Source: a virus | Taxonomy: Duplodnaviria; Caudoviricetes | DNA length: 26,922 nt | Direction: 5' to 3' (one strand) | Virus record (IMG/VR): IMGVR_UViG_3300020045_006138 | Span: 1-26,922 of that record | Shown here: positions 2,920 to 24,970 of the stretch, in pieces | Layout: every line of letters begins with the position of its first letter | Position numbering within the stretch: position 1 is the first letter of the stretch | Notes under the pieces: model-generated | Databases searched by the model: none | What the model was told of the DNA's origin: nothing | Seen by the model: the letters and a program-made list of their open reading frames with translations, nothing else | Program-made: the position numbers and the translations under genes

Positions 2920-4431
2920 ATGAACCTATTAGATAAAACAATATCGGCATTTAGTCCAGAATTAGGAGCGAAGAGAGCGAAATTTAGAGCTGTTGAGAAA
3001 ACTATCCAAAACAGCATAAGAGCGTACGAAGGAGCGACTAAATCAAGGCGTGGCGACGGATGGACAGCCTACAACACATCAGAAAATGCAAACAGCGATA
3101 TTCAGAAAAGTTTAAAAACTTTACGAGATCGTTCCGTGGATGGTTATAAAAATAATGCCTCTATTTTTAAGGCAATTAGAACCATTCAAAATAATGTTAT
3201 AGGTACAGGAATTATGCCAACCCCTGTTTCAGTTTCTGGAGAATCCAAACTAACCAAAAACGAAATCCAAAAAATTAAAGACGAATGGAAAGCTTGGGCA
3301 GAATCAGTGGAATGTGATTTTGACGGGTTTTTTACACAATATGGTTTGCAGTCTCTTATTATGCGAAACGTGGCAATGCAGGGTGAAATTTTTATTTTAA
3401 AACGCAGGGATTCTTCCAGCCGACACCCTATTAAATTGCAGGTATTGGCACCGCATATGGTTGACCATACCAAGAATTCGTATATGATTACCGAGCGTGC
3501 AGGAAACTACGTTGTACAAGGCGTAGAATTCAACAGCCAAGGTAAACGTGTTGGATATTGGGTTTTCGACTATAACCCAAACAATGAATATACAATGAAA
3601 TTGGCGCCAAATTTTGTCAGTTCAGATGATATGATTCACGTGTTTTACAAAGAATTTCCAGAACAAGTGCGAGGCGTGCCGTTCGGAACAGCTACAATGT
3701 TATCGATGCGTGATTTAGCCGATTATAAAGACGCTCAATTGATGTTGCAGAAAGTGTCAGCCTGTCACGTAGCGTTTACCACTAAACAGGAATCAGGTGA
3801 CGGGTTGGACGGGTTAGACACGGTAACTGGACAAGAGATTGACAGAATGGAACCGGGTATAATCGAACGTCTTGCTCCAGGTGAAACCGTAACTTTCAAT
3901 AATCCTCCAACGCCTTCAAGTTTTTCAGAATACGTTTCTAAAAATCAGCAAGAAAACGCAGCAGGTTACGGAATTACCTATGAACAATTAACAGGCGATA
4001 TGGGTAACGTGAATTTTTCCAGCGGTCGTATGGGATGGATTGAAGCACAACGACAAATTGAAGACTGGCAGTACAATATGTTTATTCCTCAATTTTGTGA
4101 TAAAATATGGCTTTGGTTTATTGAGGGCTTGAAAATTAAAATGATTCTGAACAAAAATGCTCAAGCCGAATGGACACCACAAGGACGTGAAATGATTGAC
4201 CCAGTTAAAGAAATGAACGGTTTGATTTTAGAATTAAAATCAGGTTTAATTTCTTGGACAGAGGCGTGCAAGCGTAGAGGTTATAATCCAGATACTCTTT
4301 TAGAGCAAATCAAAACTGATAAAGCGATGTTTGAAACTGCAGGAATTAATGTTGAGTGGATAATTCAGGAAGCTGAATTAGATATTGAAGAACTGTCTGC
4401 AAATCAGATAAAAAATCAGGTTAAAAAATAA
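2920..4431 (+). CDS. portal protein, lambda family
   Basis: 503 aa; RAYEGA, LRDRS, EQVRGVP, YEQLTGD-VNFSSGRMG and IDPVKE motifs; follows terL and gpW. Confidence 0.95.
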   Translation: MNLLDKTISAFSPELGAKRAKFRAVEKTIQNSIRAYEGATKSRRGDGWTAYNTSENANSDIQKSLKTLRDRSVDGYKNNASIFKAIRTIQNNVIGTGIMPTPVSVSGESKLTKNEIQKIKDEWKAWAESVECDFDGFFTQYGLQSLIMRNVAMQGEIFILKRRDSSSRHPIKLQVLAPHMVDHTKNSYMITERAGNYVVQGVEFNSQGKRVGYWVFDYNPNNEYTMKLAPNFVSSDDMIHVFYKEFPEQVRGVPFGTATMLSMRDLADYKDAQLMLQKVSACHVAFTTKQESGDGLDGLDTVTGQEIDRMEPGIIERLAPGETVTFNNPPTPSSFSEYVSKNQQENAAGYGITYEQLTGDMGNVNFSSGRMGWIEAQRQIEDWQYNMFIPQFCDKIWLWFIEGLKIKMILNKNAQAEWTPQGREMIDPVKEMNGLILELKSGLISWTEACKRRGYNPDTLLEQIKTDKAMFETAGINVEWIIQEAELDIEELSANQIKNQVKK

Positions 4432-9770: not shown

Positions 9771-9788
9771 ATTATATTTACGAAAAAT
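9767..9788 (+). promoter_or_regulatory. recurring promoter-like motif TTTTATTATATTTACGAAAAAT
   Basis: Near-copy of the 2650/12483 motif, fused to the terminator T tract. Confidence 0.55.
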
Positions 9789-9812
9789 AATTTAATTTAA
9801 AACTTATCAAAA

Positions 9813-10010
9813 ATGGCAGAAAAAACAGATTACGAAATCAGTCAGGAAAACTGGGTAAAAGAACAGGAAAATTTAATTGATGTTATGCAGAATAATATTG
9901 ATTATTTGAAAAACGAAATACAACTAAAAACTATTTCGTTACAGTTGAACGTTATGTCTTTAAAGCACGAAAAGAAAGCTTTGGATAATTATTTATCAAA
10001 ACAAAAATAG
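9813..10010 (+). CDS. hypothetical coiled-coil protein (65 aa)
   Basis: ORF fills the gap between tube terminator and chaperone; A-rich leader; heptad-like pattern. Confidence 0.7.
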   Translation: MAEKTDYEISQENWVKEQENLIDVMQNNIDYLKNEIQLKTISLQLNVMSLKHEKKALDNYLSKQK

Positions 10011-10012
10011 CC

Positions 10013-10324
10013 ATGTCAGAACCTAAAAAAACATTACCAGCAAAAAAACCCACAACACTTGAAGGCATTGCTGACAGAAACATTTACCTTGAATTCGATT
10101 TACCAAGTGGTAAAAAATGCGTTATAAAACGCTTCAAAGGAAAACACGTACAGCAAGCGCAACGCCTTATGGATGCTAAATTAGGAGGCGAAGATTTTGC
10201 CGATTGTTTAGCTGCTATGCTTGTGGAGATAGATGGAAAGCCAGTTATTAAAGAGGATTTGCCAGAAATGGACGGAGTGGATTATTTAAAAATGATAACT
10301 CCTATTAATCAACTTTTTACATAA
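10013..10324 (+). CDS. tail assembly chaperone (P2 gpE / Mu gp41-like)
   Basis: 103 aa between tube and tape measure; LPSGK...KGKH...EDLPEMDGVDY. Confidence 0.85.
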   Translation: MSEPKKTLPAKKPTTLEGIADRNIYLEFDLPSGKKCVIKRFKGKHVQQAQRLMDAKLGGEDFADCLAAMLVEIDGKPVIKEDLPEMDGVDYLKMITPINQLFT

Positions 10325-10508: not shown

Positions 10509-12188
10509 ATGGCAAAAAAAACATTTGAAGTTGCGCTACTCCTTACAGCAAAGGATGAAGCAACACGCATTATCGCTGCTGCTGCTGCTCGACAACGGCA
10601 AATTATAGCAATGTCAGAGCGTGGAGACAGGGCTTTTGCAACGGGGAGAACTGCAGGAACTATTGGAATAGGAATTGCAGCCGCATTGGCATTACCGTTG
10701 AAAGCGGCTGCCGATATGGAATCAATGAATATCGCTTTGCAAACTTCTTTCCAGGGAAATCAAAAAGAAGCCAAAGCTGCTTTTGATGCAATTAATAAAT
10801 TCGCTGCAAAAACTCCCTATGGATTGGAAGAAGTCATGACTGGATTTATCAAGCTGAAAAATATGGGTCTTGATCCGTCCGAAGAGGCATTAACAGCTTA
10901 TGGAAATACAGCTTCAGCAATGGGTAAATCATTGAATGATATGGTTGAGGCGGTTGCCGATGCTGCAACAGGAGAGTTCGAGCGATTGAAAGAGTTTGGT
11001 ATAAAAGCCAAGTCCGAAGGCGAAAATGTGACGTTTATGTTCCAAGGCGTAAAAACTACGGTAGGTAAAAATTCCAAGGAAATTGAACAGTATCTGAAAT
11101 ACGTTGGAAATGTAAAATTTGCTGGAGGAATTGAAGCGCAATCGAAGTCTGTCAAGGGGATGCTTTCAACTTTGCGTGACGGTGTCGTAATGACCGCTTC
11201 CAAGGTCGGAACCGTGTTTATACCGAGGTTGAAAGAATTAATGAATCAAGTCACGCCTGTAATTGATAGGATTTCTAACTGGGTAAGCAAAAACCCTGGA
11301 CTAACCGAGGGGATTTTAAAAGCAGCAGCAGGCGCAATGGCTTTGAGTTTTGCAATTTCGGCAGCGGCTTTCGCATTTGGAGGTGTTTTTAAAGTGATTT
11401 CGGCAGGTATGGCAATAATGAATGCTTACCGAACTTTAATGATTACTGTAACGGCCGTTCAGACCGCAATGGCATTTTCTGCTATGTCTGGAGCGACTGG
11501 AATCGGAGTTTTGTCAGCAGCTTTAAAAGCGGCTAATTTAGCGTTCTTGACTTCGCCAATTTTTTGGGTAGTTGCTGCAATTGCGGTTTCTGCATTTTTG
11601 ATTATAAAATATTGGAAACCAATTTCTGCGTTCTTTAGCAATTTATGGACAGGAATTAAAGCGGTTTTTTGGAAAGCTATTGATTGGATCAAAGAATGGG
11701 GTTTATTATTTCTTGGACCGATTGGATGGATAATTAAAGCGTGGCAGTTAGTTCCAGATAAATTTAAAAATATCGGAACTGATATAGTAATGGGGCTTTG
11801 GAACGGAATAAAAGCAAAAGCGATGCAGTTGTTTGATTTCGTGAAAGGAATCGGTAAAGGCATAGCCAACGCATTTAAAACGGTTCTAGGCATCGCATCG
11901 CCTTCAAAAGTTTTTATGGATTATGGTGTAAATATAACCGAGGGAGCGCACAACGGAATTAAGAAAGGCGAATCGAAATTAGTCGGAGCTTCCAAAAATA
12001 TGGGTTCGTCGATAAAACCAGCGGCTTCGGGTCGTGGAGGTGGCGGTAATTCATCGGTAACCGTAAATTTTGCACCTGTAATTAATAGCGGTTCTGGCGA
12101 TGTGGCAACGCAGGTTAAAAATTTAATTCCTGAATTGATTCGACAAATTGAGGCGCAAATGCAAAGAAAAGCAAGATTAGCGTATTAA
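10509..12188 (+). CDS. tail tape measure protein
   Basis: FAAKTPYGLEEV...AVADAATGEFERLKEFGI tape-measure domain; Ala/Gly-rich region with periodic Trp/Phe; LGIASPSKVF. Confidence 0.95.
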   Translation: MAKKTFEVALLLTAKDEATRIIAAAAARQRQIIAMSERGDRAFATGRTAGTIGIGIAAALALPLKAAADMESMNIALQTSFQGNQKEAKAAFDAINKFAAKTPYGLEEVMTGFIKLKNMGLDPSEEALTAYGNTASAMGKSLNDMVEAVADAATGEFERLKEFGIKAKSEGENVTFMFQGVKTTVGKNSKEIEQYLKYVGNVKFAGGIEAQSKSVKGMLSTLRDGVVMTASKVGTVFIPRLKELMNQVTPVIDRISNWVSKNPGLTEGILKAAAGAMALSFAISAAAFAFGGVFKVISAGMAIMNAYRTLMITVTAVQTAMAFSAMSGATGIGVLSAALKAANLAFLTSPIFWVVAAIAVSAFLIIKYWKPISAFFSNLWTGIKAVFWKAIDWIKEWGLLFLGPIGWIIKAWQLVPDKFKNIGTDIVMGLWNGIKAKAMQLFDFVKGIGKGIANAFKTVLGIASPSKVFMDYGVNITEGAHNGIKKGESKLVGASKNMGSSIKPAASGRGGGGNSSVTVNFAPVINSGSGDVATQVKNLIPELIRQIEAQMQRKARLAY

Positions 12189-12190
12189 TG

Positions 12191-12225
12191 TTTGGTAGTT
12201 TAAAAATAATAATTATATTTGCGTA
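12191..12225 (+). promoter_or_regulatory. Bacteroidota consensus promoter (cassette 1)
   Basis: TTTG (12191-94), 19 nt, TATATTTG (12214-21); 31/35 identical to 14846-14880. Confidence 0.85.
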
Positions 12226-12241
12226 TAAAATAATAGAAATT

Positions 12242-12421
12242 ATGAAAGTAAAAATTGGAAATAAGATTTATGATTCAGAAAAAGAACCTATAATGTTAAT
12301 TTTGACAGACAAGGATAAAGAAAATATAAAGAATATGCATTCCGAAGCAACTAAATTTTGCTCTTATCCGGATGAAATGTTAGGTATAGACATTGAATTA
12401 TGGATGGATGACGATTGTTAG
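12242..12421 (+). CDS. hypothetical protein, moron-like cassette 1 (59 aa)
   Basis: MKVKIGNKIYDSEKEPIMLILT...WMDDDC; start reassigned to ATG 12242 downstream of the promoter; has its own terminator. Confidence 0.8.
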   Translation: MKVKIGNKIYDSEKEPIMLILTDKDKENIKNMHSEATKFCSYPDEMLGIDIELWMDDDC

Positions 12422-14880: not shown

Positions 14881-14902
14881 ATATTAATTTAAAACTTATG
14901 TT

Positions 14903-15151
14903 ATGAGTAAATTTAGTAAAATAACAAGACATTGCTATATAGTTGAAAATCAAAATGGATTTAACAATGCTTTATATGATTATTTCAAAGACTATAAAAA
15001 AGAAAGCGTTAGAAAAATGGTTCAAGACTATCCTAAGTATTATCCCACAACTATCGTTATAGTAGATCAATCTTTTGAATGTAGTAGGGTGTATATAGAG
15101 TGTTTCGATATAAGAGATATTTCCCATCAATATCACGGGTTTTCCATTTAA
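14903..15151 (+). CDS. hypothetical protein, moron-like cassette 2 (82 aa)
   Basis: AT-rich ORF between gpD and gpV with its own promoter and terminator. Confidence 0.8.
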   Translation: MSKFSKITRHCYIVENQNGFNNALYDYFKDYKKESVRKMVQDYPKYYPTTIVIVDQSFECSRVYIECFDIRDISHQYHGFSI

Positions 15152-23071: not shown

Positions 23072-23599
23072 ATGGCAGACGTAAAAAAATTATCGCCTAT
23101 TTTGGCGAAATGGGAAGCGGGATTTGTAAACGATCCAACCGATAAAGGCGGGGCAACGAATATGGGTATCACAATTGGAACTTGGAGACAAATTGGCTAC
23201 GATAAGGATGGTGACGGTGATATAGACGTTGTAGATATTCGTTTACTTGACGAACACGACTTTGCGGCCGTTTTGAAAATATATTGGAACAAATGGCAGG
23301 CAAACAGATTAATAAACCAGTCTGTAGCTAATTTATTAGTTGACTGGGTTTACACTTCTGGAAAATGGGGTATCGTAATTCCTCAAAGAATTTTGAAAAT
23401 CGAACCTGATGGATTTGTAGGTAACCAAACAATTCTTGCCGTCAATTTGGTTGACCAAAAGAAATTTTTTGACGCTGTTTTTGAGGCTCGTAAAAAATTT
23501 TTCAATGACATTGTAAAAAATAACCCGTCACAGAAACGATTTATTAAGGGGTGGATAAACCGCCTAAATGATTTTAAATTCTCAGAAACCGATATTTAA
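23072..23599 (+). CDS. endolysin, glycoside hydrolase family 108 with C-terminal peptidoglycan-binding domain
   Basis: WEAGFVNDPTDKGGATNMGIT, DGFVGNQT, QKRFIKGWINR. Confidence 0.92.
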   Translation: MADVKKLSPILAKWEAGFVNDPTDKGGATNMGITIGTWRQIGYDKDGDGDIDVVDIRLLDEHDFAAVLKIYWNKWQANRLINQSVANLLVDWVYTSGKWGIVIPQRILKIEPDGFVGNQTILAVNLVDQKKFFDAVFEARKKFFNDIVKNNPSQKRFIKGWINRLNDFKFSETDI

Positions 23600-23615
23600 T
23601 TTATCGGTTTTTTTT
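23586..23615 (+). terminator. intrinsic terminator ending the late operon
   Basis: AAACCGATA-TTTAATT-TATCGGTTT plus T tract; endolysin stop codon lies in the loop. Confidence 0.85.
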
Positions 23616-23621
23616 ATACGC

Positions 23622-23646
23622 AAAAAACACGCCCTAAAGCGTGTTT
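23622..23646 (-). terminator. intrinsic terminator for leftward transcripts
   Basis: Minus strand AAACACGC-TTTAGG-GCGTGTTTTTT. Confidence 0.85.
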
Positions 23647-23677
23647 GATGACCAAAAAAATATCCAAAACTTATCGG
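23622..23677 (-). ncRNA. candidate small RNA (~55 nt)
   Basis: Minus-strand TTATATTTACAA motif (23689-23678) followed by CCGATAAGTTTTGGATATTTTTTTGGTCATC and the terminator; no ATG-started ORF on that strand. Confidence 0.4.
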
Positions 23678-23693
23678 TTGTAAATATAAGGAA

Positions 23694-24300: not shown

Positions 24301-24933
24301 TTAAACAACGGTTTCGGGTTGTTTTTCGGCAACGGTGTTATTTAGTTTTTCGATTACTGAATTGTTTGAAGGCATTTCAGTATAGCCAACATCCTGCACT
24401 TCATCTTGTGATTGCATTCCCATAAGCACGTCTGGACAGTGTAAACGTCCAAAAAAAGCGGCTGCACGGTATTGTAACATCAGTTCTGGCATAGTTTTCC
24501 ATTTAGATCCACTTTTCGACATCCATCCTTCGGCTGTTGCCATTGCAATTGAACATTCAGGTCCTTCAATTAATGTACCGTCTTGGCGTTTCGTGAACGC
24601 TCTACACGTTTGTTTGTCTTTCGACACATTGAATTGCAATGGCTCTAAAAATCGACCGCAGGAATTGATTAATGCGATAATAAACGAACTTCCCCAACTC
24701 GGTTTTCCGTGGATTACATTCATATTTTGCATAACCATTAAAGGAGACATTCCAACTCGGTTGGACATTTCCAAAGCAACAACGCAGTTTGGCAAATTTC
24801 CTTGGTAAGCCGTTGGAACCATTGTCGATTTTGCCAAAAGTCCTGCCATACGCTGGGCGTGTTCAAATGATTGCGAGGAATCGAATACTGATACTTGGTG
24901 AGTTGTTTGCAAACTCGGTAAATTATTTTCCAT
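24301..24933 (-). CDS. RecT-like single-strand annealing protein (probably extends to 24217 past an in-frame stop)
   Basis: LAKSTMVPTAYQG, SPLMVMQNMNVIHGKPSW, SKWKTMPELMLQYRAAAFFGRLHCPDVLMG; near RecE-like and SSB genes. Confidence 0.85.
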   Translation of the reverse strand: MENNLPSLQTTHQVSVFDSSQSFEHAQRMAGLLAKSTMVPTAYQGNLPNCVVALEMSNRVGMSPLMVMQNMNVIHGKPSWGSSFIIALINSCGRFLEPLQFNVSKDKQTCRAFTKRQDGTLIEGPECSIAMATAEGWMSKSGSKWKTMPELMLQYRAAAFFGRLHCPDVLMGMQSQDEVQDVGYTEMPSNNSVIEKLNNTVAEKQPETVV

Positions 24934-24970
24934 TGATAAGTTTTTTAAATTATTGATTATTTATTTTAGA

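Follow-up and report, generated by a model that had tools for sequence, protein, structure and literature searches.

Genomic setting

The stretch of DNA analysed here (26,922 nucleotides, hereafter the window) is a 26.9-kb linear virus record that carries lambda-like terminase and head genes, a contractile tail module and an endolysin, together with an exonuclease VIII-SSB-RecT operon that runs convergent to the rest. A flavobacterial host is suggested by the A-rich leaders devoid of Shine-Dalgarno (SD) sequences, by the TAnnTTT boxes and by weak similarity at the DNA level to phages of Flavobacterium and Tenacibaculum. Cultured phages match only in short pieces at 68-71% identity or in a sheath protein less than 60% identical, and a scan of bacterial genomes with the chaperone described below returned two weak, irrelevant Methylocystis matches and neither a prophage nor a host.

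Promoters in the window fall into three -7 box classes (examples at 12214, 14869, 4465 and 15217): TTTGC precedes morons and early genes, TTTAC structural genes, and TTTGT the protease-capsid gene. Across 13 genomes, the TTTAC variant stands mainly before structural, packaging and primase genes, and TTTGC before early genes and morons. Two annotations deserve comment. The moron annotated at 12188 probably starts at 12242, and the RecT of the window (24301-24933, minus strand) has 210 aa, compared with 236-241 aa including an acidic tail in close relatives, and is therefore truncated here by a stop codon.

Architecture of the putative small-RNA unit

The unit occupies positions 23688-23622 of the minus strand. 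Its parts and immediate neighbours are as follows.

23680..23688, minus strand: -7 box of the Bacteroidota sigma-A type, variant TATATTTAC, the predicted sRNA promoter (from an alignment of 23 copies)
23622..23675, minus strand: predicted small RNA of about 54-55 nt, folding as an open 5' arm plus one hairpin
23666..23675, minus strand: 5' seed GAUAAGUUUU, whose complement is the top C/G-containing leader word in the close group
23647..23665, minus strand: U-rich single-stranded continuation of the pairing arm, differing between copies in both length and sequence
23622..23646, minus strand: intrinsic terminator (hairpin 23646-23625, U run to 23622)
23686..23690, minus strand: anti-seed CUUAU, predicted to cover the seed in read-through early mRNA
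23586..23615, plus strand: terminator of the late (endolysin) operon, convergent, predicted to keep plus-strand transcription off the unit

A first-pass annotation of this DNA had described a candidate sRNA with a minus-strand promoter motif, a 5' seed and an intrinsic terminator, and these elements are indeed in place: TTATATTTACAA is present at 23689-23678 (minus strand), GATAAGTTTT lies at 23675-23666 (minus strand), and no ORF of at least 45 aa is found on the minus strand between box and terminator. The three plus-strand copies of the motif also exist, starting at 2655, 9772 and 12488, five bases away from the positions first given (2650, 9767 and 12483). With a fifth copy that had gone unrecorded (11937-11928, minus strand, within the tape-measure gene), TTATATTTAC occurs five times in the window versus 0.10 expected, a count reached in none of 100 shuffles. 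The box of the unit is a G-to-A variant of TAnnTTTG. According to PMC9723704, the -7 box of F. psychrophilum is located at -12..-5, which would place the +1 of the unit at 23676 or 23675 and the seed, therefore, at the extreme 5' end of a 54-55 nt RNA.

The terminator is probably common to the unit and the early operon. Thus, the caveat attached to the original proposal, namely that the segment might simply be the 3' UTR of that operon, probably describes one of its roles correctly, but it leaves the conserved box and the seed-target covariation unexplained. No Rfam family reached its gathering score in the window or in nine related loci. A plus-strand match to FuFi-1 (30 bits against a cut-off of 59.6) was composition-biased and was rejected, as was a guide of the RNA-guided nuclease type (dCas12f, PMC13472631), since no such family occurs among 76 proteins scanned in PHROGs.

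Conservation of the unit

An endolysin scan yielded 80 loci, 17 of which carry the unit by pattern; a direct scan and a covariance model added more, giving 24 close copies in total, the window included. The promoter-seed pattern itself matched 33 viral stretches, of which 10 were dropped as coding or repeat matches lacking a terminator. The unit is kept in the 24 close loci whatever the upstream gene, which varies, and the eight close genomes have one strong covariance-model match each. Across 23 aligned copies, the -7 box differs at a single N position only, the two bases that precede the predicted +1 are free to vary, and the seed core GATARGTTT has a sole variable position, A/G. The terminator is paired in 207 of 207 alignment cells, with compensatory change at two pairs, and its U-G pairs are valid on the minus strand only, which fixes the strand.

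Six sister lineages, with tail tubes 75-93% identical, have a box-arm-terminator arrangement at the same place but with other seeds, and a -7 box stands before the arm in every one of the seven lineages, with different genes upstream. More distant P2-like tail loci, most of them with SD-type leaders and four without a usable start, gave no matching unit, and five further records gave no eighth lineage. One related record rated complete (G001; L153-L155) joins an HK97-like head and long-tail module to the group's baseplate J/I, endolysin, small RNA and replication genes, and is either a recombinant that arose in nature or the product of faulty assembly.

Placement of the seed complement

The exact complement of the seed, AAAACTTATC, is found at both sites first claimed for it, 9799-9808 (plus strand) and 24944-24935 (minus strand, -11..-2 of recT). 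The seed itself (23666-23675, read on the plus strand) is the third and last copy in the window, versus 0.17 expected and none in 100 shuffles with as many. The reported 9-nt match at 14891-14899 is likewise real, and a further one had been missed (26248-26240, minus strand, inside the exonuclease gene). Among the 36 called leaders, the three sites originally singled out are the three that pair best (-14.5, -12.6 and -11.3 kcal/mol).

A genome-wide count had been proposed as a check, and the expected concentration at start regions is evident: in eight genomes, 21 of the 24 copies of AAAAC[CT]TATC outside the unit lie in sense orientation at -22..-10 of an ATG, a placement for which about 1.1% of positions qualify by the chance baseline. 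Two of the other three are in sense orientation at +13 and one is unassigned, none being antisense to a leader. The +13 copies belong to the endolysin gene of G003 and the helicase gene of G004, which are possible further targets. In distant loci (128; 1.7 Mb), 0 of 13 copies precede an ATG, and five sister genomes together have one copy in 181 kb. When words were ranked without reference to the seed, AAAACTTATC emerged as the top C/G-containing 8-, 9- and 10-mer in close-group leaders; it marks 11 of 196 N-terminal clusters in the close group versus 0 of 175 in sister phages, some families being split between clusters. The tagged genes include recT, primase-helicase, an endonuclease and several morons.

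Predicted targets

The features of the window that bear on the predicted targets are the following.

9773..9781, plus strand: -7 box of the TTTAC class heading the chaperone cassette (by motif position)
9799..9808, plus strand: predicted target 1, leader of the tail-assembly-chaperone (TAC) cassette, here heading inserted ORF 9813 (14-bp duplex, -14.5 kcal/mol)
9813..10010, plus strand: inserted ORF 9813, 65 aa, ending 2 nt before the chaperone start (coupling presumed)
10013..10324, with a -1 frameshift extension to 10467, plus strand: tail assembly chaperone (by position, extension and structure)
24935..24944, minus strand: predicted target 2, leader of the RecT-like gene at 24933-24301 (PHROG 561, E 1e-80)
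14891..14899, plus strand: possible target 3, leader of moron ORF 14903-15151 (third of 36 leaders by pairing)

Tail assembly chaperones, whether of the P2 gpE/E+E' or the lambda G/GT type, have a -1 frameshift extension as their hallmark. ORF 10013 is assigned to them on several grounds: it stands between tube and tape measure; every close relative examined shows an open -1 extension some 50 codons long; Pfam Phage_TAC_7 is matched by 4 of 16 homologues, while the protein of the window itself matches no Pfam family; and the top Foldseek match is HK97 TAC 2ob9 (probability 0.98, E 0.025, TM 0.51). In 20 of 20 close tail-tube loci, AAAA[CT]TTATC lies 0-5 nt before the first ATG of the cassette, with C in 12 of them and a G-U-compatible U in 8; the seed G opposite this base is invariant in all 23 copies. 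G001 keeps the unit with an unrelated tail module, the leaders of which lack the motif. ORF 9813, for which no PHROG or Pfam family was found, is missing from most relatives; in these, the chaperone itself directly follows this promoter and leader. ORF 9813 is flanked by a near-repeat of TTATCAAAA (9990-10012 and 9799-9812), the 3' copy of which is the exact CTTATCAAAA in L114 and L124, and it may have entered by microhomology.

Of the 19 unit-bearing relatives in which a recT was matched, 17 retain the pairing at its leader, across two recT clades that are about 50% identical. In G007, the recT site has an A-C mismatch (-8.2 kcal/mol, with 163 of 500 shuffles as good), and L008 has the unit and no motif at recT; in G003, the seed, the recT site and the primase site have changed together. 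For moron ORF 14903, no homologue was found among the 80 loci searched.

Seed-target covariation

For the comparison between lineages, relatives, most of which share one dataset number, were grouped into seven by seed and tube identity, without a tree. Each arm was then paired with the leaders of each lineage by ViennaRNA duplexfold, and the assignments were permuted; starts were called by a simple script, and the duplexes are AU-rich and were scored without target accessibility. Covariation of seed and targets had been named as a check on the original proposal, and for the chaperone leader it is seen, the true assignment being the best of all (1/5040 with seven lineages, and the best of 720 with six). 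In an automatic run over 32 protein families, the chaperone again came first (1/5040; about 0.006 after correction), and the families next after chaperone, primase and helicase stood at about 0.03. The chaperone result remains at 1-25/5040 over 20 window settings and at 1/720 when any one lineage is dropped, and the lineages L139 and L295, found after the idea had been noted, both fit. Seen singly, the signal is less tidy: for two lineages a foreign leader scores equal to or better than the own one, the chaperone leader ranks 1, 8, 10, 3, 12, 2, 1, 15, 4 and 13 among the 36-59 leaders of its own genome, and the own duplex is unremarkable against shuffled arms in G006 (72/500) and G015 (75/500).

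The primase and helicase leaders each reach 1/24, the best possible with four lineages, and are probable further targets on these sequence comparisons. As a family-wide target recT was rejected (209/720 permutations across lineages), and recT tracks the seed only in the lineage of the window. Pairing of the second half of the arm with the exonuclease start was also rejected (84/720 and 407/720). In several lineages, the U-rich extension adds further pairs to the predicted duplex. The complementarity to distant leaders, being conserved and covarying, is as expected of a trans-acting base-pairing sRNA, a class marked also by a discrete transcript and by pairing-dependent changes in target expression. 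Because seed and target leaders change together across seven lineages, the unit likely acts as an RNA brake on production of the target proteins.

The anti-seed upstream of the box shows a modest tracking of its own seed in the same test (91/5040), and the variable pair between seed and anti-seed is kept in 20 of 23 copies. Predicted openness of the seed is lower in the read-through RNA in all 15 folded cases (of 17 units), in one of them marginally, and the effect is weak in the window itself. On these folds, pairing with the anti-seed likely masks the seed wherever it forms part of the long early mRNA, so that the 3' end of the early mRNA would not be a regulator.

Proposed mechanism and alternatives

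Taken as a whole, the unit is probably a trans-acting phage sRNA that has its own Bacteroidota-type promoter and whose open 5' end pairs with the leader of the TAC cassette and with several replication and recombination leaders, thereby blocking ribosome loading. The RNA would start at 23675 or 23676, and its open 5' end would pair with roughly the final 20 bases ahead of the start codons. In this phylum, adenines of the region around -14..-2 set initiation, as stated in PMC6847099; a duplex over about -14..-2 of an SD-less leader could thus prevent ribosome loading. Repression rather than activation is suggested by the overlap with the initiation region, by the example of GibS and FopS and by the two target leaders that were folded, which are nearly unstructured, making repression more likely. 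Pairing at the RNA level is favoured over a DNA operator by the strict sense placement, the mid-operon sites and the G-U-skewed variation.

The timing and role of the RNA are less secure. Late expression fits the promoter class of the unit, as TTTAC boxes stand mostly before structural and packaging genes and before primase, and the RNA is therefore probably made late. The favoured reading, at somewhat less than an even chance, is that the RNA serves as a late brake which limits chaperone output and turns down replication and recombination genes. In such a scheme the RNA would rise with the late-class promoters, chaperone output would be limited to a pulse or a set level, and synthesis of primase-helicase and RecT would be turned down as well. 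Of the original proposal, comparative evidence supports an independent sRNA that pairs in trans with SD-less leaders, but not its use as an early-to-late switch: the target that every one of the seven lineages shares is a late leader, that of the chaperone, and recT is a target only in the window's lineage, so a plain early-to-late switch does not fit.

The same RNA and the same pairing could also serve another end. Were the RNA already present at the outset of infection, or produced during a carrier state, it would give a C4-like immunity in the form of a kin-specific lock on the lytic cycle: the resident phage, and any incoming phage that shares its seed, would have replication and tail assembly shut off. 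The targets do span replication, recombination and tail assembly, the promoter is near the host sigma-A consensus, and the seeds are lineage-specific, as are the target-specific loops in C4 (PMC5320573). We nevertheless consider this unlikely, because the box is of the TTTAC class of late genes, not the TTTGC class of early genes, and because no integrase was found among 54 mostly non-structural proteins scanned in two near-complete genomes (26 of 56 ORFs in G004 and 28 of 63 in G001).

A protein might read the motif instead, either as a DNA operator half-site, with the inverted copies forming the operator, or as the site of an RNA-binding translational regulator. A lineage-specific protein of changing specificity would also yield covariation by lineage; moreover, the inverted repeat spans the promoter, a Cro-like HTH protein is encoded, and the A-C mismatch in G007 suits a tolerant site. 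Set against this are sites that lie strictly in sense, 0-12 nt from the ATG, including those of mid-operon recT and of primase, which have no promoter nearby, a repeat spacing that ranges from about 9 to 26 nt across lineages, and variation skewed to G-U-compatible changes, and an RNA-binding protein would leave the antisense copy at the transcript +1 unexplained. Such a protein site therefore appears less probable still than the C4-like lock.

It is a little more improbable again that the segment amounts to no more than the early operon's 3' UTR and terminator, with pairing either in cis with the recT leader or by chance between U-rich and A-rich sequences. Between the early operon and the unit, the window shows no other terminator, and leaders are A-rich in this phylum (PMC6847099). 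Yet this reading accounts neither for the -7 box that stands before the arm throughout the seven lineages, nor for a best-tracking target on another transcript, 13.9 kb off, nor for the 31 other families that show no comparable own-lineage match. Most improbable of all is that the RNA promotes or protects its leaders, by stabilising 5' ends or aiding SD-less initiation: the seed and the chaperone cassette do share a promoter class, and a late RNA that represses a late gene needs an extra assumption, but the two folded leaders offer no hairpin to open, the duplexes extend over -14..-2 and, in certain lineages, over the AUG as well, and it is from here that GibS and FopS exert repression (PMC11697453 and PMC7366714).

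Relation to known systems

For the trans-acting RNA proposed here, the closest parallels in layout are FopS and GibS of Bacteroides thetaiotaomicron, which, according to PMC11697453 and PMC7366714, pair with the initiation regions of SD-less mRNAs and repress them. The unit has in common with them a single-stranded 5' seed, a Rho-independent terminator and, in the case of FopS, a sigma-A-type promoter, and the same sources mention one Caudovirales phage that carries a FopS sequence. FopS has 12-15 multicopy paralogues there, whereas the unit is single-copy in each genome. Unlike FopS and GibS, it has predicted targets among the phage's own structural and replication genes, and its seed is rewritten by lineage along with the target. 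Binding to the RRM protein RbpB is a further mark of that family. Neither FopS nor GibS appears among 18 Rfam matches with E up to 10, although Rfam 15 may not hold a FopS model. The unit is FopS/GibS-like in layout, though probably not a member, and C4-like in logic.

C4 of P1 and P7, as described in PMC5320573, likewise acts in trans near ribosome-binding sites of phage mRNA through a phage-specific pairing sequence; it comprises three stem-loops, is cut by RNase P, pairs through loops and maintains lysogeny. In contrast, the unit has one hairpin and a linear 5' seed and is accompanied by no integrase among the proteins scanned, and no Rfam match to C4 or three-stem-loop fold was found in the window.

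Phage RNAs that repress phage genes include OOP, sar, aQ, STnc6030 and PAK_P4as15, which PMC12197685 describes as antisense to single target genes; among them, STnc6030 represses a structural gene, that of the tailspike, and gives superinfection exclusion. Unlike these cis-antisense RNAs, which overlap their targets on the opposite strand, the unit is intergenic, with predicted targets at distances of 1.3 kb and 13.9 kb, and would reach several leaders via a short seed. PreS of lambda and VpdS of VP882 are trans-acting phage sRNAs that tune the lytic cycle, as the unit may do, but according to the same source they are Hfq-dependent, act largely on host functions and belong to phages of Proteobacteria, whereas the predicted targets here are phage leaders in an SD-less host. 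In the open-access literature, no such RNA was found described for Bacteroidota phages or for a tail chaperone.

Control in trans of several of a phage's own genes by its RNA is rare among described cases, and seed-target coevolution across lineages, seldom visible for sRNAs, is represented here by seven natural pairs. If confirmed, the unit would indicate that SD-less leaders can carry regulatory tags and that chaperone dosage is a control point of tail assembly, and it would offer a 55-nt scaffold for programmable knock-down in flavobacteria.

Wider reach

A broader and more speculative idea, which we think rather doubtful, is that re-programmable anti-leader RNAs are general in Bacteroidota phages, each lineage having a private tag in the leaders of a chosen regulon (tail chaperone, primase, helicase, recombinase) and a 55-nt RNA that begins with the complement of this tag. 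Leaders would be free to take such tags, as they have no Shine-Dalgarno sequence to preserve. Were this true, seed codes could serve as timing circuits and kin-specific exclusion groups.

The same box-arm-terminator layout, here with the seed UUAGUGUGGUG, is seen in an unrelated phage family.

L190:627, L192:8797, L203:5231, L214:7734 and L216:3648, minus strand: units of the unrelated family (also in L204, L208, L212 and L240)

In five loci, the complement CCACACUA is found in the leaders or first codons of one to four called genes per locus, including an exonuclease-VIII-like gene; no Rfam match to the unit was obtained in L190 or L216.

Several relatives have other structured elements near the tail genes. 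A separate short cassette, in which a promoter is followed by a structured RNA and a terminator, lies between tube and chaperone (L112:10520-10670, L115:4585-4750, and after the tube in L126 and L127) and has no Rfam match in L112 or L126. In L126 (about 3100-3210) and L127, a tRNA-like sequence for which ARAGORN makes no call is located in the chaperone 5' UTR, upstream of the tagged leader, and L426 has a tRNA-like sequence at the same place. Finally, a sister phage carries another box-arm-terminator unit between the tape measure and the next tail gene (L284:1160, plus strand).
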